From Gemmatimonadota bacterium (GTDB lineage Bacteria; Gemmatimonadota; Gemmatimonadetes; Gemmatimonadales; GWC2-71-9): a stretch of 64,000 nucleotides of DNA. The position numbers and the translations under genes were made by a program. Below are positions 30,106 to 59,258 of this stretch, in pieces. The DNA lies in the NCBI GenBank assembly GCA_036679605.1, contig JAZDCZ010000247.1:32001-96000 (forward strand), read 5' to 3'. Below the pieces are notes generated by a model. It was not told where the DNA came from and ran no database searches. It saw nothing but the letters and a program-made list of their open reading frames with translations. Each line of letters begins with the position of its first letter. Within the stretch, counting starts at the first letter, position 1.

Positions 30106-30555
30106 ATGCGTCGTCTAATACCAGCGGTTGCTGTCTTTTCGTTCATCGCCACGTCGTGCGGTGGTCCAGACCTCGTCGAGCGACGAGGCTCCATCATGGA
30201 TCGGGATGGCGTGGTCGTGCTGGAGTTACCAGCGGAATTCCAGGTCAATCAACCAGGCACCGTGGCGGTAACCACATTCGGGAACAGCTGTATCAGCTTT
30301 GCGCGCACCCAAGTCACCGTACAGGGCCTGATCGCCACCGTCGAACCGTATGACTTTGACGATCGCTTGAGACAAGACCTAACCGGTCTGGTGGTTTGCA
30401 ATGACAATCGAATGCTGGTCCGACATCCTGCGGAGCTGGTCTTCGCCACAACCGGGGAAGCCGCGATCCAGTTCACAGGGTTGCACGAATGGGTGGACAG
30501 CGTTGGCCAACACGATTCAGTCATTACGGTCGAGCGGCGAGTCCCGGTGCGCTAA
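30106..30555 (+). CDS. Lipoprotein, paralog A
   Basis: Lipobox ATSC; about 92% nt identity to 33278-33688 by manual alignment. Confidence 0.75.
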   Translation: MRRLIPAVAVFSFIATSCGGPDLVERRGSIMDRDGVVVLELPAEFQVNQPGTVAVTTFGNSCISFARTQVTVQGLIATVEPYDFDDRLRQDLTGLVVCNDNRMLVRHPAELVFATTGEAAIQFTGLHEWVDSVGQHDSVITVERRVPVR

Positions 30556-33181: not shown

Positions 33182-33688
33182 TTGAAGAACCCTACGAACT
33201 CGCCCAAGCTAACACCCGGTGGTACTATCGCCGCCGTACGGTGGCTGGTGGTAGTCAGCGTTCTCGCGGTTCCCGCAATCGCCACGTCGTGCGATGGTCC
33301 AGAACTCGTCGAGCGACGAGGCTCCATCATGGATCGGGATGGCGCGGTCGTGCTGGAGCTACCAGCGGAATTCCAGGTCAATCAACCAGGCACAGTGGCG
33401 GTAACCACATTCGGGAACGGCTGTGTCAGCTTTGCGCGCACCGAAGTCACCGTACAGGGCCTGATCGCCACCGTCGAACCGTATGACTATGACGACGCCT
33501 TGAGACAAGACCTAACCGCTCTGGCGGTTTGCAATGACGTTGGACGGAGCTTCCGGCATCCTGCGGATCTGGTCTTCGCCACAACCGGGGAAGCCACGAT
33601 CCAGTTCACGGGGTTGCACGAATGGTTGGACAGCGTTGGCTGGCACGATTCGATCATTACGGTCGAGCGGCGGGTCCCGGTGCGCTAA
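33182..33688 (+). CDS. Lipoprotein, paralog B; start uncertain
   Basis: Lipobox ATSC; mature part colinear with 30145-30555. Confidence 0.72.
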   Translation: MKNPTNSPKLTPGGTIAAVRWLVVVSVLAVPAIATSCDGPELVERRGSIMDRDGAVVLELPAEFQVNQPGTVAVTTFGNGCVSFARTEVTVQGLIATVEPYDYDDALRQDLTALAVCNDVGRSFRHPADLVFATTGEATIQFTGLHEWLDSVGWHDSIITVERRVPVR

Positions 33689-36066: not shown

Positions 36067-36222
36067 CTAGCCCCGCCGCCTAGGTGTCCTCGGTGTCACG
36101 AACTCCTTGAACAGTCTAGAAAACTGACCTAGTTTCACATCCAGGACAGCCAAGATGCACGCCAGAGCTTCCACCGTAACGCCGCTCTCACAGCGTTCTA
36201 ACCTACCCACATAGGTACGGTG
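36067..36222 (-). pseudogene. XRE-family HTH gene 3' half, copy 2 of 3
   Basis: HRTYVGRLERCESGVTVEALACILAVLDVKLGQF...PRTPRRRG*. Confidence 0.75.
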
Positions 36223-36357
36223 CGTACGCCGCTAAGGAAGTCGTTAGTTTGTGCGGCTGACGTTGATGCGCGTAAATTCACTAGTAACCGTGGCTGGCGG
36301 GCGAGGTCGCTCGCGAGTCATTGGCTGTTCGATTATGTCCCGCGCCAGAAAGACAGA

Positions 36358-37359
36358 ATGGCCACAGTATCTAGGTATCTTCGCGAGACTTCCCTGATCA
36401 AGGCTGAGGCGGTTCTCAGCCTGCCCGACGGCAGCCGTGTGCGGGCAATCTCGGAACGCGAAGCCACGCAAATGGCGGCTGAGATCCGGAAGCGCAACCT
36501 CTTCTCCCGACATTCATGGGAAAACGACTTCTACTACAACCGTGCCCTGAGCTTCGGCGGCAAGACGGTCATCGAGGTCTTTCGAACCGGGCAGCCAAAC
36601 GACATCGCGGCCGAGGTCGCTTCCGTTGCGGAGTGGGGTGAAACCGTGGCTCTCTTGTCAGTGACTCTCGCAACAGAGCGCAAGACCTTCCTCCGCCGCG
36701 TGGGTGGTGGACCGGTTGAACGGACCGAGATCGACCTGATACTCGGCCCGGATCTCCGCCACCTACGTTCCAAGTCGCGCGTGGCTCCCAAGCGCACTGG
36801 ATTTCCGTTGACTCGGCAAGCCGTGACGAGATTCGAGCGTCTTGGCTTCTCGAAACTGTACACCTTACTGACTACCCAAAGCCCGTTTAGCGCCCGGTTA
36901 AGACGGGCGGCCGGTTGGCTTTCTGAGTCTCGACGGGAGCCAAACCTCGAAGCAGCGGTGGTCAAGAGCGTCATATCGCTCGAATCGCTCCTGATCCTCG
37001 GAGAATCAGAACCTCTTAGCCGTTCGCTGTCGGAACGATCGGCGTTTCTTCTGTCCCCACTGCCTGAGACCCGCCGGCGTGTGGGCACCCTTGTTGGCAG
37101 GCTCTATGAGGTCCGGAGCGGGATCGTCCACGGAGGACGCCGGAAGCGAAAGAACCTCACGCCACGTCTGCTTGAGGCGTGCGATCGGTTGGCCGTACTC
37201 CTCCTTATGGTAACGGCGCACAATAGCGACAGCTGGGTTGACGAAGACGGGTTCCGGCGGTGGGTAGGTGATGAGCGGTGGGGCCCGCCGTCACGCCTGG
37301 TTCTGCCGTTCCCACCGGTGTATCTGTCGCGAGCGCTGGGGCTCGGGGAGCGGTCATAG
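36358..37359 (+). CDS. ApeA-like HEPN domain protein (putative RNase/defence effector)
   Basis: C-terminal ISLESLL...LSERSAFLL...LYEVRSGIVHGG (Rx4H). Confidence 0.75.
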   Translation: MATVSRYLRETSLIKAEAVLSLPDGSRVRAISEREATQMAAEIRKRNLFSRHSWENDFYYNRALSFGGKTVIEVFRTGQPNDIAAEVASVAEWGETVALLSVTLATERKTFLRRVGGGPVERTEIDLILGPDLRHLRSKSRVAPKRTGFPLTRQAVTRFERLGFSKLYTLLTTQSPFSARLRRAAGWLSESRREPNLEAAVVKSVISLESLLILGESEPLSRSLSERSAFLLSPLPETRRRVGTLVGRLYEVRSGIVHGGRRKRKNLTPRLLEACDRLAVLLLMVTAHNSDSWVDEDGFRRWVGDERWGPPSRLVLPFPPVYLSRALGLGERS

Positions 37360-37624: not shown

Positions 37625-38251
37625 CTAAGGACGCGTTACGTCCGCCGCAGAGTAGCGCGGCAGCATTGCACCATCCTTATAAGCTCGGAGTGCGTCGATA
37701 AGGCAGCTTCGAAAACGGTTCACGACTCCGCTTCTAACTGGGTCATCAACATCGCGAAACGATTTTTCTGCATCGCAATGCTCGTCCAGTCTGGCCCTGA
37801 CTGCAGCCGCGCGCCTTTCCAGTATCAGTTGCGGGCGATTGAGATACAGCTTTTCGATCATGTAGATGCCAGCTGAGACAATACTCTTCGCCATGTGCGA
37901 CTCCCGGTCAACAGAAAGGAAGTCTCCATAACATCGTCTAGATGGGTTTACGTAGCCAGCCAGCGAGATGTCATTGTCCTTGGAACCGTTTGGCCAATCG
38001 TTACCCTTGAACGTGTTACAAATCGCACACGCAAAGAAGAGATTCGCATAGTCGTCCGTGAGGTCAACAAACTTCGATCTAGGCCGAAAATGCTCGACAT
38101 GAAAATTTCTAATCCCACCGAAAGAAGCGTCATGGATGGCGCAATAAACGCATTGATGCTTCGCCTCCTCGGCCAGATGCGGCTTCCAGTCTCGGTACGA
38201 CCCAGTAGTCGGCCTATTCGACGCTTCCTTCGGTATCCTCCTCCACTCCAT
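37625..38251 (-). CDS. HNH endonuclease
   Basis: CVYC...HVEHFRP...YANLFFACAICNTFK. Confidence 0.88.
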   Translation of the reverse strand: MEWRRIPKEASNRPTTGSYRDWKPHLAEEAKHQCVYCAIHDASFGGIRNFHVEHFRPRSKFVDLTDDYANLFFACAICNTFKGNDWPNGSKDNDISLAGYVNPSRRCYGDFLSVDRESHMAKSIVSAGIYMIEKLYLNRPQLILERRAAAVRARLDEHCDAEKSFRDVDDPVRSGVVNRFRSCLIDALRAYKDGAMLPRYSAADVTRP

Positions 38252-38912
38252 CGCCTTGCCCTTTCACCCTGTTCTCAGATAGTCTCTGTCGTATTGTTTC
38301 AAGCTCCGCTAAGCTCGCCTCCATCTGGTCGAGCCAACTCGCGCGATCGTAGAGCTCATCCACCACGAAAGCCAGTTCCATTTTCTGTTGAAGCGACCTG
38401 GCCTCCTTTAGATCTTCCTCGGACGCATCGCCAAGTGCTACCTTCCGGGCGATTCGCCCCAATTCTTCCAGTTCCTTCTGATTCTCCTCCCAGAATCTCG
38501 TACCAGCCCGGACGAAACGATCCGTGTAACCCTTGGCACCACGTGCAAATCCCTCGCGGTTGACGACGTCTTCCACAGCACCAAATCGCTCGCTCAAGGC
38601 CTCGTCGTCATCCCATCCGGTAACAACGAAGATCGGAAATGTCGGCAATCTAGCACGGATGAAATCGACGACATCATGTCCGTCGTAGGTCACAGGTTGC
38701 GCCCCTTCCTCAACTTGTTCCCTCAACCTTTCGTCTAGCACAAGGACTACGATCTCATGCTCCGTGAGCCAGCTAGGGTAGTAATCAAGCCTCTCCAGCG
38801 GCGCGCTGTCTTCACACGTCCATGTTGCATGCTGCCGTAAGTAACGACTAATACGACGGGATATGGTCTGCCGGACATCCGATCGATCGTCTATGACGCC
38901 TATTGCGGGCAT
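38214..38912 (-). CDS. Receiver (REC) domain protein with helical C-terminus
   Basis: IGVIDD, VLVLDERL (phosphoacceptor Asp), DGHDVV, IFVVTG; no recognisable DNA-binding output. Confidence 0.78.
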   Translation of the reverse strand: MPAIGVIDDRSDVRQTISRRISRYLRQHATWTCEDSAPLERLDYYPSWLTEHEIVVLVLDERLREQVEEGAQPVTYDGHDVVDFIRARLPTFPIFVVTGWDDDEALSERFGAVEDVVNREGFARGAKGYTDRFVRAGTRFWEENQKELEELGRIARKVALGDASEEDLKEARSLQQKMELAFVVDELYDRASWLDQMEASLAELETIRQRLSENRVKGQGDGVEEDTEGSVE

Positions 38913-38917
38913 GTCCC

Positions 38918-41131
38918 CTATCTCTTTGGAATCCACACCGTAAACCGGGCACCCTCTAAACCAGGATCACGGTCTACCGTCCTTGCACCTGCCATGTCCT
39001 TCACGATCCAGTCAACGATCGTGAGCCCGAGCCCCGTCCCGATATCCTTCCCTGCCGCATCTCGCTTCGTTGTGAATAGTGGCTGCCAAATCGATTCTCG
39101 CAGCCCTCTCGCAACACCTGACCCGCTGTCAGACACTGCGATCTCAAACCCGGCCTTGCCGTCTCTTTTTCGCGATTTCAAGGTGACCGCGACGACTCGA
39201 GGCCTACGTCGCAGCTGGCAAGCCACATATGCGTTCGTCAGCAGGTTAAGCACGATAGCCTCAATGTCCATCGCAAAGGTGCGTGAAGTGATCGCTGACA
39301 AACGGTGCCTTAGCTGGATACTTGCTCCATCAAACACCGGCTTAAGCGATTCGATTAATTCGCGTAACAACTCGTTCACCGGCACCTTCCGTCGCTTTCT
39401 CTTGTCGCGCTTCATTCTAACCAAAGCGAACGCACCCCAGGCGCTTACCCGATCGCTGTACTTCAACACCTTGGCGATTTCTTCCACCGCGGCGTCAACG
39501 TTCGGTGGCGACTCCTGAAGCTGCTCCGACGCTGCATATGAAGCATTCGTCATGCCACCTATCGACACCTGAGTTTCGTGCGCAAATGCCGAGCTGGCTA
39601 TTCCCAGGGTCGCCAAACCTCTCAAGACCCCCGCCTGGGACATCAGCTCCCCAACCGACGCACGCGTCATCTTCACGTCCGTCGCAAGAACAGCCACCTG
39701 ATCCAACGCGCGCTTCATTGGCACCACAACTGACTCGGGCACCGTCTTCTCAATGCGCTTCAAGCTGCGTTGTAGTTCAGTGAGATCTCGCTCGACCGAA
39801 GCGATCTTTTGTGTCGCTTTCACAGGCACTTCCGCAGGCAGCGTCTTCTGATGCTCCTCATGCCTGTAGGCCTCTAGCAAAGTGACCGCTCCCAAGACAA
39901 TGCCCCGCAGCTCTGCATAGGCTTCTCCATGAATTAGCCCTTCACGCGACGCGCTGTCGGCAAGAGCCGCGTTCTTGTCCCTCCCGATAAACACCGCACC
40001 TACCGTCTGATTCGCTCCAATCTTGTATCGCCGCCGCGCGGGTCCAGTCGGTTCGCGCTGGCGTCTCTCGGCGAGGCCCAGCCAATCTCCATCGGGATGC
40101 TGCGCGTCACCGTAGGGACGTACGCGTATGTTATCTCGATATATTTTCACACCGGCATTGCGGTCGAGAAAATGACGCAAGTCGGTCAAGGTGACAGTCA
40201 TATCGCGTACAGCATCGGCCTCTCGCAAGTAGAACAATAGCTTCAAATCAAACGACCCCACAATTGGTCTTGCTTTCACAGCACTCTGCCTTCCTCCGCC
40301 TACTTGCTGATAAATCTGGTGCCACGGAATTCGTTTAATCGGCGCGCTCCTCGACTTGCCGCCAGTGTTGTCCGCGATCGAGTATGCAAGACGGCCATCG
40401 GCTGTTAGCTTCGCACTCAATATGATGCGTGCTATTTCATAGAAAGGCGACGTCACCTCGCCGTTCCATTGTTCATCGACATCATTGCTGAACAAAATGC
40501 GGAAGTCTTTTATTCTATTAAAAGGCGGCGTCAAGTACGACAATTCGTCGTAAAGATTCCTGACGTCATCAGGACTCCAGCCCTGACGCAGCTTGCGAAT
40601 CAGCAACTGTGTTCCACTCTTACTCACCTGCTCATTCATGTCCAACGGTGGGGTAAGGTCTGGGTCCTCCAATATCGAGAGCGGCACAGAGCCAATTTCG
40701 GATCCGTCAACGTCGAAACTATCCCAGTTTACACTCAGTCCGAAAAAGGGCGACCCTGTCTTTTTTGTTCTGAGTTCCAGCAAAGCACCCAGACGATCCG
40801 TGGAGATCCGCCCGATCCCTTTTTCGCCGGTCTTTCGGCGGCGTCGACCAGACATGCGAGTACGGCGCTTTTCGGAATATCCAATTCTTAGCCAGTTGTG
40901 ATCGATATCCTCCTCACTCATGCCGCATCCGTTATCAGAGACCATCACATGCGGATCACTACCCTTCGAGACGATCTGGACTTCCACGATAGTGGCGTCT
41001 GCATCGTAGCTGTTCTTCACGAGTTCGAGCACAGCGGTCGTGTGATCCTTGATGCTCTCCCGCCCGAGCGTGAGAATCGTGCGAGCGTCAACGCTGAATC
41101 TCTTATCGACCATCTTGTATTCTGTTGACAA
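38918..41131 (-). CDS. MORC/MutL-type GHKL ATPase fused to a C-terminal histidine kinase
   Basis: N-terminus: ELVKNSYDADA, DNGCGM, GEKGIGR. Middle: RVRPYG, DWLGL, SREGL and a coiled coil. C-terminus: FAHE, NLLTNA, DSGSG, PLFTTK, GTGLGL. Confidence 0.88.
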   Translation of the reverse strand: MSTEYKMVDKRFSVDARTILTLGRESIKDHTTAVLELVKNSYDADATIVEVQIVSKGSDPHVMVSDNGCGMSEEDIDHNWLRIGYSEKRRTRMSGRRRRKTGEKGIGRISTDRLGALLELRTKKTGSPFFGLSVNWDSFDVDGSEIGSVPLSILEDPDLTPPLDMNEQVSKSGTQLLIRKLRQGWSPDDVRNLYDELSYLTPPFNRIKDFRILFSNDVDEQWNGEVTSPFYEIARIILSAKLTADGRLAYSIADNTGGKSRSAPIKRIPWHQIYQQVGGGRQSAVKARPIVGSFDLKLLFYLREADAVRDMTVTLTDLRHFLDRNAGVKIYRDNIRVRPYGDAQHPDGDWLGLAERRQREPTGPARRRYKIGANQTVGAVFIGRDKNAALADSASREGLIHGEAYAELRGIVLGAVTLLEAYRHEEHQKTLPAEVPVKATQKIASVERDLTELQRSLKRIEKTVPESVVVPMKRALDQVAVLATDVKMTRASVGELMSQAGVLRGLATLGIASSAFAHETQVSIGGMTNASYAASEQLQESPPNVDAAVEEIAKVLKYSDRVSAWGAFALVRMKRDKRKRRKVPVNELLRELIESLKPVFDGASIQLRHRLSAITSRTFAMDIEAIVLNLLTNAYVACQLRRRPRVVAVTLKSRKRDGKAGFEIAVSDSGSGVARGLRESIWQPLFTTKRDAAGKDIGTGLGLTIVDWIVKDMAGARTVDRDPGLEGARFTVWIPKR

Positions 41132-41176
41132 ACACTATCATGATGCAGCTCATTTCATGACGCCAGTCGTCGGTCT

Positions 41177-42475
41177 TCAACTTGTAAATGGCAGAGCCTG
41201 AATGATGTTTGCAGTCAAGTGTCGACAACGGGCGCGTTTGTTGAGCCAGGTTGTCGTTGACTGCTTGCGTAGGTACCGAAGCAATGCGCGACACCGCTCA
41301 AGACTGCCATTGTTAGGCTTCACGATGATCAGGTGGTTTTCGACTGCTACCGGCCTCTTCCCCGTGACGATCGCTGCTGCGGCCCGTGGGTCGTCGGTGG
41401 GACGAGAGGTGCGCTTGATAACCACAAAAGGCGGAGTGGTCACGGACCCCTTGAAGCGTCGTTTACACGCAATTCGGCGTATCTCGGCCCAAGGTCGCAC
41501 GTCACGACTCGTGAGATACGCGCGCTTGGGCCCTACGCGCGGTGAATGGCGATGAGGTACCACCGCGCCAACAGCAACTGTACACCTATCGGAAAGACGA
41601 GCTCCTGACTTGGGAGGTCCGGGTAGAAGCAGACGCTTCTTTGTACCCTGAGCACACCGCTTGCAGTCCAACAGGAAAACATCTACATCCGCCCAGGTCG
41701 CAAACTGGCCCAGCAGCGCAACGTGATTCACGGTGGCGATTCTGCGGATGTACTCCCGCCATGCACGATATCTAGGCCCCGACCTAAGAACTTCGGGAAG
41801 AATTGCCACCAATCGTGTTCGGTCTGGCGTATTTTCCAAACACTCAGTAATGAACAACGCCGCCTTATTGATAGAGCCCGTAGCCCAGCCACAATGCTCT
41901 GGCGCCGCGTCTATCGTGAACGGAGGATTGAGCACTAAGGTGACGGGACGTTCAAAATCCGTCCAATCGTCGTAGAAATCACCCGTGCGGATGTTGGGAA
42001 ACGCTGGTTCATCAAGGAGCGCATTGACTTCACGGAACGATTTATGGCGGCTTGCAGCCAGCAGCACCAGTCGGGTCTTTGCCGCATCAACAAACTCCCG
42101 ATGCTGATCTATCCCATAAACAATCTTCTCCCACTGGCGAATGGTTTTGAAGAGCGTGCTCTTGAGAGGGAGCCTTCTTGCGCAAGCAATCAAGAGGTCT
42201 CCGGCACCACAAGCTGGATCTACAATTGGTGCTCGTGCGGGAACCCGTCCCTGTACAACTGCCCGTGCAGCAAGCTCGCAAGCAAGTCGTTGTGGCGTAA
42301 AGAAGGCACCGATTGCCCTCAAGCAGAGGACGGAAACAACCTCCCGAAGAGCACGCGACGGCCCTCCGTCAAGGGCCGCCGAAAGCAAGGAGACGTCTTG
42401 GGAATCAGGTTTGTCGACCGCAAGGCTGCGACCCAACTGGTCGAGTGTCGCTACATAAGAGTCAAATGCCTTCAC
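41177..42475 (-). CDS. N6-adenine DNA methyltransferase (gamma class) with C-terminal target-recognition region
   Basis: GAFFTP, DPACGAGDLL (motif I), LNPPF (motif IV). Confidence 0.85.
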   Translation of the reverse strand: MKAFDSYVATLDQLGRSLAVDKPDSQDVSLLSAALDGGPSRALREVVSVLCLRAIGAFFTPQRLACELAARAVVQGRVPARAPIVDPACGAGDLLIACARRLPLKSTLFKTIRQWEKIVYGIDQHREFVDAAKTRLVLLAASRHKSFREVNALLDEPAFPNIRTGDFYDDWTDFERPVTLVLNPPFTIDAAPEHCGWATGSINKAALFITECLENTPDRTRLVAILPEVLRSGPRYRAWREYIRRIATVNHVALLGQFATWADVDVFLLDCKRCAQGTKKRLLLPGPPKSGARLSDRCTVAVGAVVPHRHSPRVGPKRAYLTSRDVRPWAEIRRIACKRRFKGSVTTPPFVVIKRTSRPTDDPRAAAAIVTGKRPVAVENHLIIVKPNNGSLERCRALLRYLRKQSTTTWLNKRARCRHLTANIIQALPFTS

Positions 42476-42817: not shown

Positions 42818-43544
42818 TTAATCAGGCCGCCTTTCTCGTGAGCGATTGACGGATGTCGACCGAGGTCCGATGGCCGTTCCTTTCGATGGGCCACTCACGA
42901 TTGTACTTCTCGATAAACTTGCCAATCCACTCATTCGCTCCTCGATTTCCTTGACCTCTTGTAGCGCTCGTGCCACAAGTTCGTTGATTGTGGTCATATC
43001 TGAATGACGTGAGGACTCTTTAAAGGATTTCAACTGATTTGTATATATAGGAAATAATCGTCGTTGAAGCAGCTCCAGCGTTCCTCTCAACTCACGAACG
43101 TCTTCCATGGTGTCCTGCCACGCGGATTGCATCACTTGCAGTTCCTGCTCTTGCTTCCGAATCCGTTCTCCGGCGAGCCGGTCCCAACACCCGAAGTGAT
43201 TCGATGACGTCTGCTGGGCTCTCTTCGGGTAACTCTCTTCTGGGTTCCTTAATGCAGCTACTCGGCGTCGACGAAACAGTCGGTGGTGTCACAGATTCGG
43301 CGTTTCGCTCGGTCCGAGTGGGTTGTGCCTTTGTGCCTGAACCAACCCTTGCCGACTGAATGGCGTTAGTGCCGTCAACAACACCCTGAGGCGTCGATGT
43401 AACGCTTGTCTAGATAGTGTCTGCGGATTCAGCTACGGGGTCCAACCCAAGATACTTTCGGATCTCAGGAACAACTAACAGCGCAGCGGCCGCAGTAATT
43501 GCTAGGAGAACGAGCTTGAAGGTTCGGACACTACTCGGCGCCAT
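42818..43544 (-). pseudogene. Decayed membrane-anchored coiled-coil protein
   Basis: TM leader (LVLLAITAAAALLVVPEIR), in-frame TAG near 43410, low-complexity linker, frame change into the helical 42818-43135 ORF. Confidence 0.4.
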
Positions 43545-43645
43545 TTAGTTGTCTATGCTCCATCGAGAGGGCTGTTCGTCATTCTCAAGAGACTCAGCAT
43601 ACTACTAACCCATTGTAGGAAATCTACGCTGAGTTGTCGATAACT

Positions 43646-43805
43646 CTATCCCCGCCTCCTCGGATTCTCGGCCTCACGACCTCTTTGAACGGTCGGAAGA
43701 ACTGACTTAGGCTCACGCCCAGCGCCACCAAGATTGCGCCGCCAGTGTCTCCACCGTAACGCCGCTCTCACCGCGTTCCAGCCTACCTACGGAGGTACGG
43801 TGCAC
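43646..43805 (-). pseudogene. XRE-family HTH gene 3' half, copy 3 of 3
   Basis: VHRTSVGRLERGESGVTVETLA [frameshift] LVALGVSLSQFFRPFKEVVRPR. Confidence 0.75.
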
Positions 43806-44024
43806 ACTGATTGCGCACGCGTTTTCGGCAAGTTTTGGAGTGTCAACGGGCGTCAATTTTCTGCCCCTTTCACGCGATTTGCGTCCGTGAGCGTCAGTGG
43901 GCGTTGTGACAATGTTGTTACAAGAGCGGCCTGAGAGTGCAGTCTATTTCCACTCTCGCTCTATCGCATTTCCAGCCCCATCTTATTCCCTACTTATGTC
44001 CCGAGAAGGTGCCGTGGGCGAGAG

Positions 44025-45911: not shown

Positions 45912-46826
45912 GTGACGATCGCAGTTTGTTGTACCTTGGCTGATGGGGTGGTGCTTGGCACAGATAGTGCTATCACCGTAATGGGCACAACGCAGACGCC
46001 GAAGGGACCCCAGTCGGGAGTGTTGAAGGTTTATAACGAGGCCGAGAAGGTATTCGGCTTTCACATCGACGAGGCTAAGGACCTGAGGTTGCCGGTGGGC
46101 TTCGTAACCTTCGGCCTTGCCGTCTTGGGGAACAGAACAATCGAGAGCTTCGTTCGGGAGTTCGAGATCAAGAACCCGCCAGCCGTGCTCATGAAGCTCA
46201 CGATGGAGGAGCTGTGTCGCAAACTCCACGAGTTCTTCCAGGAACCGTACATCACGCTTCTCGGCGAGGTGCTAAAGCTGCAGGGCAAGAAGCTGGACGA
46301 CATCCCCCCGCAACAACGAGCGCTGGGCATGTTCGTGGGTGGGTTCTCACCGGAAGAACCCCTACCGGAGGCGTGGGAGGTCAACATCCACCTAGAGAAC
46401 GCGGATGGCGTGAAGCAAGTACGCGCCCCGGGCGACTTCGGCTCGAACTGGGGCGGCCAGTTTACGGGGGTATATCGGTTTCACAAGGGGTATGACGACA
46501 AGGCGATTGACGCGCTCCTCGAAGCGCTCGTCACGGAGTACAAGATGCTAGATCCGAAGAACGAAAAGGACCGTGCGAAGGTCGTCGCCCTTGTGCATAG
46601 CGCCTTAGCTCCATTTGAGTACATGGTTCCGTTTGCTGCTATGCCGCTGCAAGAGGGCATTGATTACACGGCGTTCCTGCTGGATATGATGATACTGCAG
46701 CACCGATTCGTAATCGGGGCTCCAACTTGTGGAGGCAGCGTTCGTATCGCTGTGATTAGGAAGCACGAGGGATTCCAATGGGTGGCAGGTCAGCGTCTCG
46801 AGGTAAAGGGGAAACGTTATGCCTAG
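45912..46826 (+). CDS. Proteasome beta-subunit-like Ntn hydrolase
   Basis: N-terminal (M)TIAV...GVVLGTDS with Thr1, MFVGGF, C-terminal MPLQEGID...TCGGSVRIAVI. Confidence 0.68.
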   Translation: MTIAVCCTLADGVVLGTDSAITVMGTTQTPKGPQSGVLKVYNEAEKVFGFHIDEAKDLRLPVGFVTFGLAVLGNRTIESFVREFEIKNPPAVLMKLTMEELCRKLHEFFQEPYITLLGEVLKLQGKKLDDIPPQQRALGMFVGGFSPEEPLPEAWEVNIHLENADGVKQVRAPGDFGSNWGGQFTGVYRFHKGYDDKAIDALLEALVTEYKMLDPKNEKDRAKVVALVHSALAPFEYMVPFAAMPLQEGIDYTAFLLDMMILQHRFVIGAPTCGGSVRIAVIRKHEGFQWVAGQRLEVKGKRYA

Positions 46827-47061
46827 GATACTTGAGGAGATTGTCAGCTCCGGGACCACGAACACTAACATCTTGCTTGGTTCCCTGTTCCAGGAACCGG
46901 ACGTGCTGGTCGGCGTCTGGAACACCGCCGAGATCGGTTTTGACCCATCGGCGCCGACAGATTTGATCGAGCGGTCGCCGCGACCATTGTCCGCCCTCGC
47001 GGACCTCGCGGTGGATCTCGGTCCGGCCGACCTGTCCACCACCTTCCAGGGGCGGAGGTAG
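46819..47061 (+). CDS. Putative antitoxin
   Basis: 80-aa acidic ORF directly upstream of a PIN gene; ends LADLAVDLGPADLS. Confidence 0.45.
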   Translation: MPRILEEIVSSGTTNTNILLGSLFQEPDVLVGVWNTAEIGFDPSAPTDLIERSPRPLSALADLAVDLGPADLSTTFQGRR

Positions 47062-47067
47062 GAGGGC

Positions 47068-47487
47068 CTGCCAGGTTCGGTATTCCTTGATTCCGCCTAC
47101 CTCATCGCCCTTCTCCACAAGCGCGATCAGAACCGCGAGAGTGCTCTTGAATGGAAAGCGATAATCGAGGACGCTCAGACCCCCCTTCTCACCACCGAGT
47201 TTTGTCTCTTGGAGGTGGTTGACTTCCTGTCCCACCGTGGATACCGCGAAGTCGCTCGCAGGTTAGTAGCTGAGCTTCAGGGGGGCGCGCTCGTAACAAT
47301 CACACCGTGCTCCAGCTCGCTCTTTCGCCGCGGTGTGGAGCTTCATGCCCAGCGGGACGACAAGACCTGGAGTCTCACGGACTGCATAAGCATCGTCGTC
47401 ATGCAAGACAACTCGATCACGAGTGTCCTGACCTTCGACCACGATTTCGTGGAGGCCGGAATGCGAGCGCTGCCTCTCGCCGAATAG
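47068..47487 (+). CDS. vapC: PIN-domain (VapC-like) toxin, apparent CTG start
   Basis: Manual translation VFLDSAYLIAL...TTEFCLLE...WSLTDCIS...LTFDHDF; no ATG/GTG/TTG before the first PIN Asp. Confidence 0.8.
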   Translation: MPGSVFLDSAYLIALLHKRDQNRESALEWKAIIEDAQTPLLTTEFCLLEVVDFLSHRGYREVARRLVAELQGGALVTITPCSSSLFRRGVELHAQRDDKTWSLTDCISIVVMQDNSITSVLTFDHDFVEAGMRALPLAE

Positions 47488-47520
47488 GCTGGCACTCTGC
47501 TGCTCCGAGCACCGGCTTGC

Positions 47521-47988
47521 CTAGTCATGGAACCACTCGATGCAGTTTGCCTCGGCTTGCTGGTGGCGACGCGTCTCAAGTTGGACCAACACACCGTATT
47601 GATATCCAAGTTGTACCCTCATGGCTTGTACTCGCTGGCGGTCACAACCACCGTCATCCGGATTCGTGGTCTTCTTTAGCTCCATTACTAGCACGTTCGG
47701 CCCGTCGCGACCGCGACGATGCACGATAATATCTGGGACAACCAGCGCCTCGTCATTTTCGTCACGGGCGTTGGCGCACTCGTCGGACAAACCTAGACGT
47801 TTGGGCGCCAGACCGGCACGATTGTACTCGACATCTACGAAGTGAGAAGGGAACACGCTCTGGAGGTAAAGGGCCAGGCGACCGGCGATGCACTGCTCAT
47901 GCAGATCATATTCGAACAGATATCGGTCGTTGAGGAGCAGAGCCTCAAGAGCGGTGTCAACCCGGGCTTGAACTACGTCGAACTCCAT
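47521..47988 (-). CDS. PD-(D/E)XK-like nuclease-fold protein
   Basis: HEQCIA...VDVEYNR...PDIIVHRRG...VMELKK. Confidence 0.65.
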   Translation of the reverse strand: MEFDVVQARVDTALEALLLNDRYLFEYDLHEQCIAGRLALYLQSVFPSHFVDVEYNRAGLAPKRLGLSDECANARDENDEALVVPDIIVHRRGRDGPNVLVMELKKTTNPDDGGCDRQRVQAMRVQLGYQYGVLVQLETRRHQQAEANCIEWFHD

Positions 47989-48013
47989 GTCATCCCTCCG
48001 AGCAAGCTGCCCT

Positions 48014-48839
48014 ATTAGGCTGCACCGCTCATGGGCTTAACAAAGCAGCGTCGGCAGCCACATGTTCGATCGAGAATGCGTACCCGATACCAACGTTCGC
48101 GGACCGTTGAATCTCCCGTGCGAGCTGCTTCATCTGGTTTTGGCCCACAATTAGTGCCTGGACGGGGTCAACGCCGCCAATACTCATGGTAGCGCGTGGC
48201 TTCTGAAGTTCAGCGATGTTCTGGTCGAATACTTGATTCAGATGATCAAACTGGTTGGTCAACCCAGTGGCCTTTCTAGTGATGATCCCGACTACTGAAC
48301 CCGATGACCTTTCGAGAAGAGGGCCACCTGAGTTGCTCTGATTGATGCTAGCATCTAGCTGAATGATATCAACGCCGCCGCTTTGGTAGCGCGATGATAC
48401 GATCCCTGCGTGACAGACCAAGTTTAAATGTTCGAAGGGATAGCCTAGAAACACGATCTCCTGGCCAACCACAACGTCGTCTGGGTTTCCAAACGTTAAG
48501 TCAAATCCGCCGCGTTCGATTATCTCTGGAATGTCGAGGATCGCATAGTCGTGATGATCTTCGTCCGACCCGGACACTAGGCGGCCGCGAAAGTCATCAC
48601 CGGTCAGCGTGACTCCGTCGTAGACATCGTCAGGATCACTGTCGTGAGCACGAATGACGACCTGGGCATCGTTGGGACCCGCAAAGACGTGATTGTTCGT
48701 GATCACTCGCCCAAGGGCAGTGAATGCTGTGCCCGAGGCGAGACAGCGCCCTGCTTGCACAAAGACGATATGCAGTACGGCGGAGCGGCACTGATCGTAT
48801 AGTTCAGTAACGGTCATTACTGTCCTCGTGCAGCCTAAC
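48014..48839 (-). mobile_element. Integron gene-cassette-like unit around the trypsin gene
   Basis: Minus strand GTTAGGCTGCAC before the RBS and GTGCAGCCTAAT just after the stop, resembling complementary core and inverse-core sites. Confidence 0.6.
48029..48817 (-). CDS. Trypsin-like serine protease, cytoplasmic
   Basis: SGTAF, ITNNHV, DYAIL, NSGGPL; GAGGA RBS before the ATG at 48817. Confidence 0.82.
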   Translation of the reverse strand: MTVTELYDQCRSAVLHIVFVQAGRCLASGTAFTALGRVITNNHVFAGPNDAQVVIRAHDSDPDDVYDGVTLTGDDFRGRLVSGSDEDHHDYAILDIPEIIERGGFDLTFGNPDDVVVGQEIVFLGYPFEHLNLVCHAGIVSSRYQSGGVDIIQLDASINQSNSGGPLLERSSGSVVGIITRKATGLTNQFDHLNQVFDQNIAELQKPRATMSIGGVDPVQALIVGQNQMKQLAREIQRSANVGIGYAFSIEHVAADAALLSP

Positions 48840-48919
48840 AAGTGTTCGGCGACTCCCGTAACGGGTTCGCATCCTACCCCCAGTCGCGCAGCGAATATGC
48901 AGTCAACAGTGCCTCCTGG
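48830..48919. repeat. attC-like hairpin repeat, copy 2 of 3
   Basis: GCCTAAC...GCGACT...AACGGGTTCGCATCCTAC...AGTCGC. Confidence 0.65.
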
Positions 48920-49284
48920 TAAGATGCTGTGTGGGCAGGGTCCACAGCGAACACACTTGATCTCCAGCGAACTCCGTTGCAGCACAAAGACACCGGGTTG
49001 CAGTCACTCATCGACAGAATTTCTTGAGCATCACCATGGGGCACAACGGCCTAGCATGCACTAACCGTTTGACTCACAATACAGTAGCAACTACGCGGCA
49101 AGAAACCCCTATTGGGGTGTAATTCTTGCGGTTTCAAAACCCGTTCGATCTGTTGTGTCCTCTCCAGTACCCGGCCGTCAGGTTGTAGTTCAGCATTGGA
49201 AGCGGTCCTTCTGCTTGGGAGTTGTCCCAAGCAGGGTACGCGACTGCACATGAAGAATTATGTAAGTGGAAAGAGGAACTAGTG

Positions 49285-51554: not shown

Positions 51555-53033
51555 ATGATCACAGGCGAACTCAAATCCAAGGTCGACCGCATCTGGGACA
51601 CGATGTGGTCCGGCGGTATCTCCAACCCACTGTCCGTCATCGAGCAGCTCACCTACCTGCTCTTCATCAAGCGGCTGGACGAGCTGCACACGCTGAAGGA
51701 GCACAAGGCGGCCCGCACCGGGAAACCTATCGAAGATGCGGTGTTTACCGCCGACCAGGACAATCTCCGTTGGTCGCGGTTCAAGGAGACGGCACCGGAG
51801 ACCATGTTCGAGACCATGCGCGATGAGGTGTTTCCCTTCATTAAGTCGCTGGGCAGCAACGGGGACGGTGAGGATGACTCCACTTACACCCACCACATGA
51901 AGGACGCCCTCTTCATGATGCCCACGGCCCGGGTGCTGGCCAATGTGGTCGATCAGCTCGACGGCATCGACATGGCCGACAGCGATACCAAGGGCGACCT
52001 CTACGAGTACATGCTCGGCAAGATTGCATCAGCCGGGCAGAACGGGCAGTTCCGCACGCCGCGCCACATCATCAAGCTGATGGTGGACATGACAGCACCC
52101 AAGCCGAAGGACGTGATCTGCGATCCGGCGTGCGGCACCGCGGGTTTTCTCATCGCAGCCTCCGAGCACTTGGTCGAGCACCACAGCGACAGCATCTACA
52201 AGAACGCCGCCGCCCGACGGCGTTTCAACGAGGGCACTTTCCACGGCTACGACTTCGACAACACCATGCTCCGGATCGGCAGCATGAACATGCTGCTGCA
52301 CGGCGTGGAGAACCCGGACATCCGCTACCGGGATTCCCTGGCCCAGGCGGAAGACGACCACGCGGAGGAGTACTCCTTGGTCCTCGCCAATCCGCCCTTC
52401 GCCGGCAGCCTCGACTACGAGTCCACCGCCAGGGACCTGCAGCAGGTCGTTAGAACTAAGAAGACCGAGCTGCTCTTCTTAGCACTCTTCCTGCGTCTGC
52501 TCCAGACCGGCGGCCGCGCTGCCGTCATCGTGCCCGACGGCGTGCTGTTCGGATCGAGCAAGGCGCACAAGGCCCTGCGCAAGATTTTTGTCGAAGAGCA
52601 GAAGCTCGACGCCATCATCTCCATGCCCTCGGGCGTCTTCAAACCCTACGCCGGGGTCTCCACGGCTATCCTGCTCTTTACCAAGACCAACTCCGGCGGC
52701 ACCAATGACGTCTGGTTCTACGACATGCAGGCCGACGGATTTTCCCTCGACGACAAGCGCACCCCACAGTCTGAGAAGAGCGATCTCGCCGACATCCTTG
52801 CCCGTTGGCGGAACCGCGACGCCGAGGACGAGCGAGCGCGGACGGACCAGAGCTTTCTCGTGCCCAAGGCCGAGATCGCGGACAACGACTACGACCTCTC
52901 AATCAACCGCTACAAGGAAGTGGAATACGAAGCGGTGGAGTACGACCCGCCCAAGGTGATCCTTTCGCGGCTCGCGGAGCTGGAGGTGGAGATCGCCAGG
53001 GGGCGTGAGGAGTTGGACGGGTTGTTGGGATGA
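51555..53033 (+). CDS. hsdM: Type I R-M methyltransferase subunit
   Basis: GQFRTPRHII, DPACGTAGFL, LANPPF, IVPDGVLFG. Confidence 0.95.
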   Translation: MITGELKSKVDRIWDTMWSGGISNPLSVIEQLTYLLFIKRLDELHTLKEHKAARTGKPIEDAVFTADQDNLRWSRFKETAPETMFETMRDEVFPFIKSLGSNGDGEDDSTYTHHMKDALFMMPTARVLANVVDQLDGIDMADSDTKGDLYEYMLGKIASAGQNGQFRTPRHIIKLMVDMTAPKPKDVICDPACGTAGFLIAASEHLVEHHSDSIYKNAAARRRFNEGTFHGYDFDNTMLRIGSMNMLLHGVENPDIRYRDSLAQAEDDHAEEYSLVLANPPFAGSLDYESTARDLQQVVRTKKTELLFLALFLRLLQTGGRAAVIVPDGVLFGSSKAHKALRKIFVEEQKLDAIISMPSGVFKPYAGVSTAILLFTKTNSGGTNDVWFYDMQADGFSLDDKRTPQSEKSDLADILARWRNRDAEDERARTDQSFLVPKAEIADNDYDLSINRYKEVEYEAVEYDPPKVILSRLAELEVEIARGREELDGLLG

Positions 53034-53199
53034 TTCGCCTCAAGGTCTTCATCAGCTCCGTACAACCGCGAAACGAGTATTCTCAGAATTGGTTGCTGAG
53101 GGAGTATTGGTGAAACAAGGTGCCGGACGTTCCACCCATTATCGGCTCAACGAGCCGCTTATGAGCCGATTAGAAGCTGATTATGAGCCAATTGTCTAG
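53030..53199 (+). pseudogene. Internally deleted DUF4062...wHTH gene remnant
   Basis: MIRLKVFISSVQ (DUF4062-like start, ATGA-coupled to hsdM) joined out of frame to TAKRVFSELVAEGVLVKQGAGRSTHY (wHTH end). Confidence 0.55.
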
Positions 53200-53292
53200 G
53201 CCAGTAGGGGTGGCGGACCCGAAGCAAAGACCGACTCGACTGGCGGAGCTGGAGGTCGTTAAGGGGCGTGAGGAGTTGGAGGGGTTGTTGGG

Positions 53293-54459
53293 ATGATGGC
53301 GCACCCGAAGGTGAATCTCTCAGATGCTTGTGCTATCTCTATGGGGCAAGCCCCCAAGGGAACCAGCTACAACACTGATGGGAGAGGTTATCCGCTGATC
53401 GCGGGTGCTGGCGATTTCGGCGAGGAAACACCTACACCTGGGAAGTACACAGATGCCCCGACAAAGATATCCCGGCCGGGTGATGTGGTTCTTTGCATCC
53501 GAGCAACAATTGGTGACCGGAATTGGTCAGACAAGGAATATTGCCTTGGAAGGGGTGTAGCAGGACTACGGGCCAATGAATAGGAATTGAGCCAAGGCTA
53601 TCTTTGGCACTGGTTGGGCCATGCCGCTCCGGCCCTAAAATCAAAAGGTCGTGGGGCGACTTTTCTGCAGGTTTCTAAGGCTGACATTGCTTCGCTCCAA
53701 ATCCCTCTCCCGCCCCTCGCCGAGCAGAAACGGATTGCGGGGATTCTGGATGCGGCGGACGCTTTGCGGGCCAAGCGCCGCGAGGCCCTCGCCCAGCTCG
53801 ACACCCTGCTCCAATCCACCTTCCTCGAAATGTTCGGCGACCCCGTCACCAATCCGATGGGGTGGAGCGATGGGGTCACGATGGGAGAGGTTGCAGAAAT
53901 CGTCTCTGGTCTGGCGAAGGGACGAAAGCTCAAAGATCAACCGACCCGAGAGCTCCCCTATTTGGCGGTTGTGAACGTCCAGGATCGTCGTCTTGTACTT
54001 GATCCCCTCAAGCGAATACACGCAACCGAGAAGGAGATTGAGCGTTATCGCCTTCAGGAAAACGACCTGCTGATGACTGAAGGCGGAGACCCAGACAAGT
54101 TGGGCCGAGGCACGCTATGGCACGGAGAAGTTGATGAGTGCATTCACCAGAATCACATTTTTAGAGTTCGTCTACACGATGACAGACTGCAACCAGCCTT
54201 CCTCAATTGGCTCGTAGGCAGCGACCGAGGGAAGCGTTACTTCCTTCGACAGGCAAAGCAGACGACTGGAATCGCGACAATCAACTTGACTCAACTACGC
54301 AGGTTCCCGCTACTGATGCCTCCCCTCGATCTCCAACACCGCTTTGCCACCATCGTCGAGTCCATCGAGCAACAGAAGGCCAGCCAGCGCGCCCACCTGA
54401 CCGAACTCGACACCCTCTTCGCCGCCCTGCAGTCCCGCGCCTTCCGAGGCGACCTCTAG
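53293..54459 (+). pseudogene. hsdS: Type I R-M specificity subunit interrupted by an in-frame TAG at 53581-53583
   Basis: Two TRDs with IPLPPLAEQKRIA and PPLDLQHRFA conserved repeats; both ORF halves share one frame. Confidence 0.88.
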
Positions 54460-54464
54460 CCCCC

Positions 54465-57400
54465 ATGGAAGTCTCCGCAAACTTCGCGTTCCTGAAGCAG
54501 GAGTTCCCGTATGCTGCGGAGAGCGCGAGCCTTGCCGAGCGGCATGTCTACGGCGACCCGCGCGCTTCCTGCTTTCATGCTCGGCATGCGTTGGAGCGAC
54601 TGGTCATGCGGGTTTACAGGGTGGACAAGACCCTAAGTCCGCCAAAGGTCACGAACTTGGACGGCTACCTGAATGAGCCAGCCTTCCGCGAACTCGTGCC
54701 CGAGGCCGTCTGGCAGAAAGCCGAGTACGTCCGACTGGCCGGCAACACTGCGGTGCACGGAAAGAAGGCACCGGAGTCGGAGAAGGCGTTGGAGATCGTG
54801 CGAGAACTTTCACATCTCCTTTACTGGGCGGGCCGCACTTACCTGCGGAAAGGTGCAGAGGAACTTCAGGGGAAAACCTTCGACGAATCACTCATCCCCA
54901 GGATGGACGCCACGAGCACGCCTGCAAACCTCGAAGAGCTTGAGGCGCTCAAATCCCAACTCGATGCTGCGGAGGACGTTCGCAAGGAAGTTGAGGACGA
55001 GCTTGAAGCGTTGCGGGAACAGCTCGCGGCCATCAAGGCGGAGAATGAGGCCGTCCCCGATACCCACGATTGGAACGAGGACAAGACCCGCAAGCTCATC
55101 ATCGACCTCGCGCTGCAGCGTGCCGGCTGGCCGCTCGATCAAGAACAGGATCGCGAGTACGAAGTGACGGGCATGCCCAACAAGAAGGGCATCGGTTACG
55201 CCGACTATGTCCTGTGGGGAGACGACGGCAAACCGCTGGCGGTGGTGGAGGCGAAGAAGACCACGGTCGATCCGGAGGTGGGACAGCAGCAGGCAAAGCT
55301 CTACGCCGACTGCCTGGAGAAGATGCACGGCCAGCGTCCCGTCATCTTCTACACCAATGGATACAAGACGCGCCTGTGGGACGATCTCTTCTATCCGCCG
55401 CGCACGGTCGCCGGGTTCTACAAGAAGGACGAGCTGGCGTCTCTGATCCTTCGTCGAGCGCAGCGAGCGCCGCTGGACGTGGCCCAGGTGAAGGATCGAA
55501 TCGTCGAGCGGTACTATCAGAAACGAGCCATCGGCAGCATCGCCGAGCAGTTCGCGCAAGCGCGGCGCAAGACACTGCTGGTGATGGCCACTGGCTCCGG
55601 CAAGACCCGCACGGCGATTGCGCTGGTGGACCTGCTGCAGCGGGCGGGCTGGGTGAAGCGGGCGTTGTTTCTGGCCGACCGGGTCTCGCTGGTGAACCAA
55701 GCGGTGGGTGCGTTCAAGGCGCATCTGCCGGAGTCGAGCCCGGTGAACTTGGTGACCGAAAAGGACGAAGCCGGACGAGTCTACGTCTCCACCTATCCGA
55801 CGATGATGGGCCTGATCGATGAGACGAAGGGCAACGAGGCGCGCTTCAGCGTAGGGCATTTCGATCTCGTGATCATCGACGAGGCACATCGCTCGGTCTA
55901 CCAGAGGTACGGCGCGATCTTCCGCTACTTCGACTCGCTGCTCGTCGGCCTGACCGCGACCCCGAGCGACCAGGTCGATAGGAACACGTACGAACTCTTC
56001 GACCTGCAGCCGGGTGTGCCGACCGACGCCTACGAACTGGAGACCGCCGTAGCCGACGGCTTTCTCGTGCCGCCTCGCGTGCAGCAGGTGGATCTGAAGT
56101 TTCCGCGCGAGGGAATCGACTACGACTCGCTCAGTGATGAGGAGAAGGAACAGTGGGAGAGCCTCGACTGGGGTGATGACGTGGACGAGCACGGCCTTCC
56201 GGACCGGGTCAACGCCAGCGCCATCAACAGCTGGCTCTTCAACAAGGACACCGTTGATAAGGTGCTCCAGCACCTGATGGAACACGGTCACAAGGTCGAA
56301 GGCGGCGACCGGCTGGCCAAGACGATCCTCTTCGCCCGCAATCACGAGCACGCGAAATTCATCGAGGAGCGGTTCAATCATCACTACCCGCATCACGCGG
56401 GGCACTTTGCACGCATCATCGACCACTACGCCAAGTATCCGCAGAGCGTGCTCGACGACTTTTCGCAGAAGGACAAGGCGCCGCGCATCGCGATCTCGGT
56501 GGACATGCTCGACACCGGAATCGACATTCCCGAAGTGGCGAACCTGGTTTTCTTCAAGCCGGTTTACTCGAAGATCAAGTTCTGGCAGATGATCGGACGC
56601 GGCACGCGGCTCTGCCCGGAGCTCTTCGGTCCGGATGACGACAAGCAGGACTTCCGCGTCTTCGACTTCTGCTTCAACTTCGACTTCTTCCGGGAAAACC
56701 CCGATGGCATCGAGCGTGGTGGCGGCGTTCCACTCGGCACACGGCTCTTTCGCTCTCGCGTGCAGTTGCTCGGCCACGTTCAGGCAGCGCCAGAGTTGGA
56801 TCGGGACGCCGCGCTCAAGGGATCGCTCACCACTGGACTGCACGGGGAAGTGGCGGCGATGAACCGCGAGAACTTCATCGTGAGGATGCACCTGGAGGCA
56901 GTGGACCGTTTTCAGAATCGTGAGGTTTGGGAGCAGCTCGACGAAGGCGATCGTGAGACTCTGGAGCGTGAGGTCGCCGGGATACCCAGCGAGATCGAGA
57001 CGGATGACATCAAGTCCCGCCTGTTCGACTTGACGGCGCTGAAGATGCAACTGGCCCTCGCTGAGGGCGACATGGGAGTCTACGAGACTCATCGCCAGCG
57101 GCTCGTGGAGATCGCCATGATGTTGGAGGAGAAGAGCACGATCCCAGTAGTGAAGGCCCAACTCGAATACCTGGCCTCCATGCAGGAGAACGTTTTCTGG
57201 GAGGGGATCGACCTGAACGGTCTCGAGAAGCTGCGCCTACGGCTGCGTGGACTCGTGCCCTTCCTGGACAAGAATAAGCGCAAGATCGTCTACACGGACT
57301 TCAAGGACGAAGTGATGCGTGTCCGCGACGAAACGGTGGACTTCATCCCGAAGATGACCGGCGCGCAGTATGAGAGGAAGGTCAAAGTCTACTTACGCGG

Positions 57401-58096: not shown

Positions 58097-59258
58097 CTAG
58101 AACTCAATCGCGTACTTGGGCGAAAACGTCTGGTTCGTGGCGCGGGCACTCTGAATACGATCGACCCGGTAAGAGCGATGCTCGCCGCTGTCGGCGCGGA
58201 TCGCGTGCATAACAAGGTTGCCGGCACGCGTGCTCCTGAGGGAATAGGGTTCAATCGTGCGGACACTGCCGCCGTACCCTAACTCAACCAAAAGGTGATT
58301 GACCGCGGCGAACCGTATGGTCTCCAGAGGTGCCGTGAAGCCCCAGGTTTGAGCCGTGCCCGGTGGAACCCACAGAGCATCTTCCTGTGGCGCGTAGGGT
58401 GCAACTCGCGGACGGCTCGGCCGCACGGTAGTTCCTTCGAGCCAAGTCAATAGCTGTGCAAGAGCTTCAAGGAATGAGTCGAGCGGTGGCAATTCGGGGA
58501 GTTGGTGGGCCCAGCATGTTGGCCCACTCGGACTCGAGTTCGGCGCGTGTTTCGGCCGTCAGGACCGCATCTTGAGTCGGTACAGGAACTCCCTTGCTAT
58601 CGCACTTCTCGACCAGGATGGCACGGATCTCGGTGGGATCCGTAGCCAAGTCTTCCCGTCTGAAGAGATTGATGATGTCGTATAGGTCTCGTGGTCGACC
58701 GCGCTCGCCCATGGCGCGGATCTTCTCGGCGAATACTTCCTCAAAACAGTAGCATCGAACCGTTCCCGGTTCATGCGGCGCGTCAGGGTACGGGTGTGAA
58801 ACGGACCGGAAGACTGTGGGGCGAACCACGCGTTCGGACGCGCTCAGGTCAAGCTTTATGCTAGCAACACCTGGAGTAGCTCGGGGGCCGATGTAGTACA
58901 CTCGTCCCTCCGTATACGCTCCAGATGGGTGGCCCTTGAGAAGAGGTTCCCGCCGACTGAAATCAATCCCGCTGTTTTGCGCCACATCATTGAGTATGTC
59001 GAGCAGGTACGGCTGCACGTCGTCGGGATGAACCGGTCCATTCGGTAAGACCGTGAAATCGAGGTCCTCTGAGAATCGGTAGGCCTCTATGAAGCACTTC
59101 TTGAGACTCGTCCCACCCTTGAACGCCCAAAGGTCCCGCAACACGTTATTCCGTCCAATACCCCATAAGACCCAGCCAATGACATAGTCCTTCTCAACTA
59201 CATCCTTGCGCAGTCCCCACTCACGAACCCGTTGCTCAATATCGATGCGCGAGATCAT
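58097..59258 (-). pseudogene. abiEii: AbiEii nucleotidyltransferase fused to a WYL domain, +1 frameshift near 58510
   Basis: VEKDY, FKGGTSL, RFSEDLDF, EKIRA, RDLYD; second frame IEPYSL...RSYRVDRI (WYL). Confidence 0.82.

Follow-up and report, generated by a model that had tools for sequence, protein, structure and literature searches.

A conserved Ambrosia-type module in a Gemmatimonadota bacterium, with an exchangeable methylase and a receiver predicted to bind its HNH nuclease

A candidate anti-phage operon was analysed in a 64,000-nucleotide stretch of DNA from a Gemmatimonadota bacterium (assembly GCA_036679605.1, contig JAZDCZ010000247.1, positions 32,001 to 96,000 of the forward strand), called the window below. 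Four open reading frames (ORFs), all open and all on the minus strand, lie between positions 37625 and 42475 and encode an N6-adenine DNA methyltransferase, a fusion of a MORC-type ATPase with a histidine kinase, a receiver and an HNH nuclease. We file the operon as a variant of the Ambrosia type, to which it is likened by gene content and description. The chances seem to us about even that it is an anti-phage module of the Ambrosia type whose nuclease is controlled at the protein level by a cytoplasmic phosphorelay. The four-gene architecture already carries a name, and as a system the operon is of a known kind. What is new here is a predicted grip of the receiver on the nuclease, a pairing of receiver tail with nuclease type, and the swapping of methylases under a constant kinase-receiver-HNH triplet.

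The AbrA-like methylase (41177..42475; 432 aa) has a gamma-type motif order with GAFFTP at 56, DPACGAG at 86 and NPPF at 183, matches PF02384 above the cut-off (E 1e-5) and belongs to class 1 of nine target-domain classes. The AbrB-like kinase joins a paraMORC-type GHKL ATPase, an S5-like middle domain, a coiled coil, a DHp domain with His512 and a HATPase_c kinase domain. Its ORF is listed as 38918-41131 (737 aa); the likely start is the ATG at 41113, which gives 38918..41113 and 731 aa, as in the protein database entry. Both ATPase modules matched Pfam (HATPase_c_3, E 2e-21; HATPase_c, E 4e-22), and in the 731-residue numbering the protein has E30 and N34, GEKGIGR at 96, H512 in an FAHE H-box, an N-box at 622, G1 at 661, F at 677 and G2 at 692. 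The structure model resembles MORC3 (TMt 0.53), kinase cores of the HK853 type (TMt about 0.6) and SMCHD1, and the MORC half resembles restriction enzymes of the BbrUII/HgiDII family (E 2e-21, far below the cut-off). A transmembrane helix is absent, since the best 19-residue hydropathy is only 1.3; the protein is soluble, and its identification as an ordinary membrane sensor kinase was rejected.

The AbrC-like receiver is listed as 38214-38936, and its likely start, the ATG at 38912, gives 38214..38912 and 232 aa. It keeps D8, D9, D60 and T98, and has Arg119 at the position of the canonical beta5 Lys. Its fold is typical (Z 15.7, root mean square deviation 2.0, 117 residues aligned, in fold-search rows that span residues 1-145). 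An all-helical tail follows at 126-220; the model shows three helices and, beyond residue 118, neither a strand nor a beta-wing nor a winged helix. Among the matches listed for 103 family receivers, which cover 25 of 48 Pfam families, there was no helix-turn-helix family. The AbrD-like nuclease (37625..38251; 208 aa) is a zinc-binding HNH protein of the PtuB/TIGR02646 kind and matches PF01844 above the cut-off (E 9e-8). Its zinc and catalytic residues are C34, C37, H51, H54, N70, C75, C78 and N79, and the Cys, His and Asn positions are kept in 118 to 121 of 121 homologues. The best matches of the nuclease were PtuB proteins of Septu and retron type I-A (PADLOC E 2e-20, NCBIfam E 2e-9, PDB E 4e-5).

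Most of this anatomy had been described in a first-pass annotation of the sequence. Its four co-oriented, intact genes, its two GHKL modules with all kinase boxes and no transmembrane segment, and its receiver with an intact acidic pocket, phospho-Asp and a helical tail overlapping the HNH gene all held up. Its spacing of 45 bp or less, or overlap, was right for the receiver and HNH genes, whose 38-bp overlap is real, and for the 5-bp gap between kinase and receiver, but not for methylase and kinase, which are 63 bp apart with the likely starts. The module has a GC content of 54.6%, against 58.2% for the genome, and a scan for promoters and terminators gave numbers close to chance (5 against 3.5 and 10 against 5.7).

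Conservation of the gene order was assessed on loci gathered with a 39-sequence kinase alignment. From 256 genome matches the best 80 were taken, giving 72 loci, and from 367 metagenome matches likewise the best 80, giving 79 loci; three viral loci were added. Order counts cover L001-L152 where enough downstream DNA was present, with duplicates and close kin included. The receiver followed the kinase in 135 of 136 loci; kinase, receiver and HNH kept their order in 128 of 129, and the complete set of four was present in 87 of 89, which bears out the four-gene unit that the annotation had proposed. One of the two misses is a threshold artefact with a visible methylase (L042) and the other a lone kinase (L066). 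His512 is kept by all 131 kinases compared and Asp60 by all 127 receivers. The 72 genome loci cover 16 named phyla, with Bacteroidota contributing 42 of them; chance adjacency of the genes was ruled out because the order is kept across these phyla. The receiver profile reached 239 clusters at 50% identity with E <1e-30. More distant forms with four genes were found on plasmids of Deinococcus, Salipiger, Bacillus, Bacteroides, Ensifer and Rhizobium, with kinases 24-31% identical where measured, and a copy on a Klebsiella plasmid is broken. A further locus (L153:5191-12804) pairs a distant MORC-kinase with a receiver-like gene of 379 aa; a gene of no assigned kind (231 aa), a C5 methylase, a divergent N6 methylase and a Vsr-like gene also lie there.

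Within its own phylum the module is patchy and probably acquired, since no clear member was found in 300 other Gemmatimonadota genomes. Two weak matches to the receiver profile in the phylum (E 7e-5 and 7e-4) were not counted; they adjoin other kinases and have no HNH match.

The annotation had known of no experimental characterisation of such a system. The operon largely matches one that has been characterised, Ambrosia of Pseudomonas aeruginosa (AbrR-AbrA-AbrB-AbrC-AbrD; bioRxiv 10.1101/2025.09.30.679545). As described in the accessible parts of the preprint, Ambrosia consists of an XRE protein, an N6 methylase, a HATPase kinase, a receiver and an HNH protein, and all five genes are needed for phage defence. 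The window operon shares the N6 methylase (NPPF, motif I, PF02384), the HATPase kinase, the receiver and the HNH protein, in the order listed there. The phospho-Asp is at position 60 in both, a weak likeness given that it falls at exactly 60 in only 9 of 103 family members. We call the operon a variant because two features stated for Ambrosia, an intact XRE gene and a winged helix, are not found here. AbrR is an intact, required, HipB-like XRE protein, whereas the window has only a frameshifted XRE helix-turn-helix remnant (43624..43898, minus strand; PF01381 E 0.0053, 17.2 bits, below the cut-off of 23). Co-oriented and about 1.2 kb upstream, this remnant is possibly a decayed AbrR or controller gene of the operon. 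Across the family an XRE gene stands just upstream in only 19 of 99 loci, as counted with a profile biased to one clade. AbrC is stated to carry a winged helix-turn-helix, in contrast to the three-helix tail of the receiver here. Ambrosia was described from Gammaproteobacteria, whereas the present family spans 16 named phyla and has a methylase exchangeable in class, position and strand. A Pseudomonas copy of Ambrosia was not found by tblastn of plasmids and phages, by blastn of E. coli, in 401 genomes of the gammaproteobacterial class or in viral contigs.

Several other known systems were compared. Neither PADLOC 2.0 nor NCBIfam 20.0 has a model that assigns the kinase, the receiver or the nuclease to such a system. 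Accounts of Tiamat and VcSduA and a survey of BREX, in their accessible text, contained nothing specific to the operon. The paraMORC loci defined by HEF_HK (PF19191) and Response_reg_2 (PF19192) (Bellieny-Rabelo et al. 2021, PMC8011034) share, in the accessible text, a soluble fusion of HATPase_c_3, a DHp domain with H-box and HATPase_c, an adjacent receiver and a restriction-modification neighbourhood. They differ in a query receiver of about 600 aa, against 232 aa here, and in methylases that are mostly C5, against N6 here. Membership was rejected: the window proteins match neither Pfam model at E 0.1 while the control L154 matches both, and PF19192 is likewise absent among the matches listed for the 103 receivers. 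Restriction-modification systems with paraMORCs, as first defined (Iyer et al. 2008, PMC2292703), resemble the operon in a GHKL and S5 ATPase associated with methylases and HNH nucleases and in a sporadic, mobile distribution; a kinase fusion or receiver is not described in the accessible part of that paper, and the operon here has no helicase.

Detocs (DtcABC; bioRxiv 10.1101/2023.01.24.525353) provides, as far as the accessible text goes, the precedent for His-to-Asp gating of a defence effector: it acts by abortive infection, needs the kinase His and the receiver Asp, and has swappable effectors that include nucleases. Its sensor is of the tetratricopeptide-repeat (TPR) kind, its effector forms one protein with the receiver and an extra receiver serves as a buffer, and the same text mentions no methylase; the operon here has a MORC ATPase sensor and a nuclease on a separate chain. 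With no TPR match, one receiver and a separate nuclease gene, membership in Detocs was rejected. Septu and retron type I-A share with the operon a small HNH protein controlled by partner proteins and gave the best nuclease matches. Here the nuclease falls below the NCBIfam cut-offs (PtuB score 38 against a cut-off of 150), its partner is a receiver rather than the PtuA ATPase, and no PtuA model matches the neighbours, so membership in Septu was rejected.

The annotation had called for a structure prediction of the receiver with the nuclease, and the prediction supports a contact. The complex scored 0.82, with 0.01 for the best control; the mark against which such scores are read admits 116 of 157 solved complexes but also 2 of 215 mismatched pairs, a calibration that holds only roughly with the alignments used. 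Separate runs shared at least 86% of contacts, and partner pLDDT (predicted local distance difference test) was at least 86. The receiver tail is thus predicted to bind HNH directly. The modelled interface is formed by the tail (148-211, with A159, Q175, W193, L194 and E198) and alpha2 (40-51) of the receiver and by HNH residues 45-51, 58-59, 76-87, 98-99 and 126-194, among them H51, N79, Y130, R139 and Q141; the receiver Asp60 is not listed in it. Within the tail, interface positions are more conserved than the rest (entropy 2.02 against 2.60, 31 and 62 positions, p 0.0006). A structure search found no solved complex of this kind, and a literature search that left most subscription papers outside its coverage found no receiver-HNH complex for such a system.

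Tail type was also found to track the nuclease. In four sister loci (L157, L159, L164 and L177), three of which carry a methylase of the window class, a gene with a metallo-beta-lactamase (MBL) fold replaces HNH, and the receiver tails are beta-rich and mutually related. Seven distant HNH loci have receiver tails of the helical type, only one of which matches the tail profile well. We found no name for the four MBL-fold sister systems. Because the tail is predicted to bind HNH and its type changes with the nuclease, the models favour post-translational control over the transcriptional model published for Ambrosia.

The methylase is the swapped part of the module while the triplet stays put. 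NPPY or NPPF is present in 120 of 122 full-length family methylases, and all 120 scored are adenine types, falling into nine target-domain clusters at 35% identity, the largest of them M.Eco57I-like. On a FastTree tree of 105 kinases the methylase class switches at least 14 times, and the methylase gene may precede the triplet, follow it or stand on the opposite strand (the last in 10 of 105 loci). The clearest pair is L136 and L020, in which kinase, receiver and HNH are 85, 78 and 75% identical and the methylases only 14%. No segment of kinase, receiver or HNH changes with methylase class. Between members of the triplet the correlation of pairwise identities is 0.70-0.72, and between these and the methylase it is 0.43-0.63, in a sample where kin are not independent. 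A methylase seems to be needed, but the triplet is apparently indifferent to which one. Either the triplet has no fixed site or every methylase class covers one and the same site. Comparison of module DNA with synonymous-codon shuffles, a weak test of motif avoidance, gave no motif common to the methylase classes.

Two further loci bear on the methylase. In Flavobacterium procerum (L014:1354-10460), behind an XRE gene, two divergent kinase-receiver-HNH triplets stand in tandem around one methylase, with kinases about 27% (first triplet) and 40% (second) identical to the window kinase; we read this as a single methylase serving two triplets. A MORC-kinase adjoins the window-class methylase in all four plasmid matches examined, of five. 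At L176:8715-10037 (minus strand) the neighbours of such a methylase are three large genes, of 936, 1395 and at least 534 aa, and the 14-kb region contains no MORC-kinase.

In the mechanism that we propose, the methylase would engage DNA as the exchangeable DNA-reading part; judged from Ambrosia it would be needed for defence, and it may also mark self. Partner-dependent methylases that double as specificity factors are described, in the accessible literature, for MANTIS and BREX. The N-terminal MORC/GHKL clamp would then sense DNA, or a methylase-DNA state, on phage DNA and switch the kinase on, as GHKL precedent suggests. His512 would autophosphorylate and pass the phosphate to Asp60 of the receiver. 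Phosphorylation would release or activate the nuclease that the helical tail is predicted to hold. The PtuB-like HNH protein, probably with no sequence specificity of its own, would damage phage nucleic acid, its putative substrate. The annotation had already proposed that His-to-Asp transfer licenses the nuclease post-translationally. Invariance of both residues, the predicted receiver-HNH binding and the loss of defence in the Ambrosia AbrC D60A mutant (bioRxiv 10.1101/2025.09.30.679545, accessible parts) fit that proposal, and the transfer and the switch themselves are presumed. A more specific version, which we put forward only tentatively, makes the Ambrosia superfamily a plug-and-play phospho-switch: the MORC-kinase would read methylase-engaged DNA or its N6-methyladenine (m6A) state independently of sequence, any adenine methylase would fit, and the tail, helical for HNH and beta-rich for MBL, would be tailored to one nuclease that is released or activated on phosphorylation.

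Several observations weigh against the mechanism that we propose. The beta5 position is Arg in 107 of 127 distinct receiver homologues and Lys in 17, and because of this replacement the phospho-switch may be atypical. The receiver-HNH complex is a model and not a measurement. In paired receiver and HNH alignments with an effective depth of 81, 4 of the 50 pairs ranked highest by mutual information fell in the interface, against 2.2 expected, and a weak search among longer receiver proteins found no receiver-HNH fusion. The four MBL loci are kin and do not count as independent cases. It is hard to imagine an interface with the kinase that stays conserved across methylases sharing only 14-20% identity, and the window-class methylase also occurs in a 14-kb region without the kinase (L176). 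In Ambrosia itself, reporters are induced during infection and AbrC is said to carry a winged helix.

These last observations belong to the model of the Ambrosia authors, who propose transcriptional control through the AbrC winged helix (bioRxiv 10.1101/2025.09.30.679545). In it the phosphorylated receiver activates transcription in concert with an XRE repressor; the methylase, once induced, marks DNA, and HNH cuts DNA so marked in a type IV-like manner. In the accessible text, infection strongly induced reporters put in place of AbrA or AbrD, D60A abolished defence, and phage passaged on methylase-only cells stayed sensitive; free exchange of methylases would also suit a nuclease that reads m6A in any context. 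For the operon in the window we nevertheless consider this model quite unlikely, with no winged helix in a receiver whose tail is predicted to bind HNH, a broken XRE gene here and an upstream XRE gene in few loci by the clade-biased count, and a methylase that can lie on the opposite strand. The XRE protein alone can explain the induction. The half of the model in which the nuclease acts on the system's own mark may nevertheless hold. A type II-like restriction-modification system with the relay as a safety catch comes closest to the first-pass annotation and is, in our view, unlikely. The triplet would recognise a single fixed site, and whichever methylase covers it would protect the host independently, in keeping with a methylase in 87 of 89 loci at varying position and strand, with adenine types in all 120 scored, and with the resemblance of the MORC half to BbrUII/HgiDII enzymes, far below cut-off as it is. 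Nine target-domain classes would then all need to cover one site, and the weak avoidance test gave no common motif. That the methylase marks self, as the annotation had it, is unproven and has evidence against it: Ambrosia methylase mutants lose defence, with no toxicity reported for them in the accessible text, and the methylase-only passage gave the phage no protection. The passage test may have been falsely negative because the methylase may need its ATPase partner, as MANTIS methylases do in the accessible accounts.

Still more doubtful is a guard or toxin-antitoxin-like module, in which the MORC-kinase would sense a phage protein (for example a methylase-blocking DNA mimic) or DNA damage and the receiver would free HNH against host DNA or tRNA. 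The closest described relatives of the nuclease are Septu and retron PtuB proteins, retron-Eco7 PtuAB degrades host tRNA according to the accessible literature, Detocs acts by abortive infection, and the modelled contact extends to the catalytic helix, much as that of an antitoxin would. Set against these, the accessible Ambrosia text reports that no host toxicity was seen during defence, and no trigger is known. We hold it very improbable that the window copy is a decaying, silent island remnant: a frameshifted XRE gene and a broken membrane and coiled-coil gene occupy the 1.4 kb upstream, but the four ORFs are full-length and their catalytic and relay residues match the family.

The surroundings of the operon look like a defence island. 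The broken gene between the XRE remnant and the methylase (42818-43544, minus strand) encoded a membrane-anchored coiled-coil protein. A 379-aa ORF converging on the HNH gene (36220-37359, plus strand) has an RxxxxH motif (RSGIVH) and no Pfam match, and we take it to resemble a HEPN RNase. A cluster at 45912-48985 includes a 304-aa protein with no Pfam match and a presumably Ntn-hydrolase-like N-terminus, a PIN-domain ORF (47209-47487), a PD-Lambda-3_A-like protein (47521-47988; E 4e-31) and a trypsin-like protease (48029-48985). Further along are a Type I restriction-modification system (51555-57851, plus strand), with HsdM (N6_Mtase, HsdM_N), HsdR (ResIII, EcoEI_R_C) and a 290-aa ORF between them, and an AbiEi/AbiEii toxin-antitoxin pair (58467-60061, minus strand). 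PADLOC profiles run against 150 of 164 flanking proteins gave 20 matches at E 1e-8, with no background control and so suggestive only. Elsewhere in the window, two near-duplicate lipoprotein-like ORFs (30106-30555 and 33182-33688, plus strand) flank an ORF for a 525-aa secreted protease-like protein.

The value of these results is mechanistic. They offer a concrete alternative to the sole published model, with a predicted interface and named residues, and they show that an anti-phage architecture described from Gammaproteobacteria occurs in at least 16 phyla. Natural swap pairs, namely near-identical triplets with unrelated methylases and HNH against MBL outputs, could directly reveal what a bacterial MORC ATPase senses, a question that dates from 2008. 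If the plug-and-play reading is true, it would overturn the transcriptional model: the input of the two-component system would be the epigenetic state of DNA, and its output a receiver-bound nuclease.

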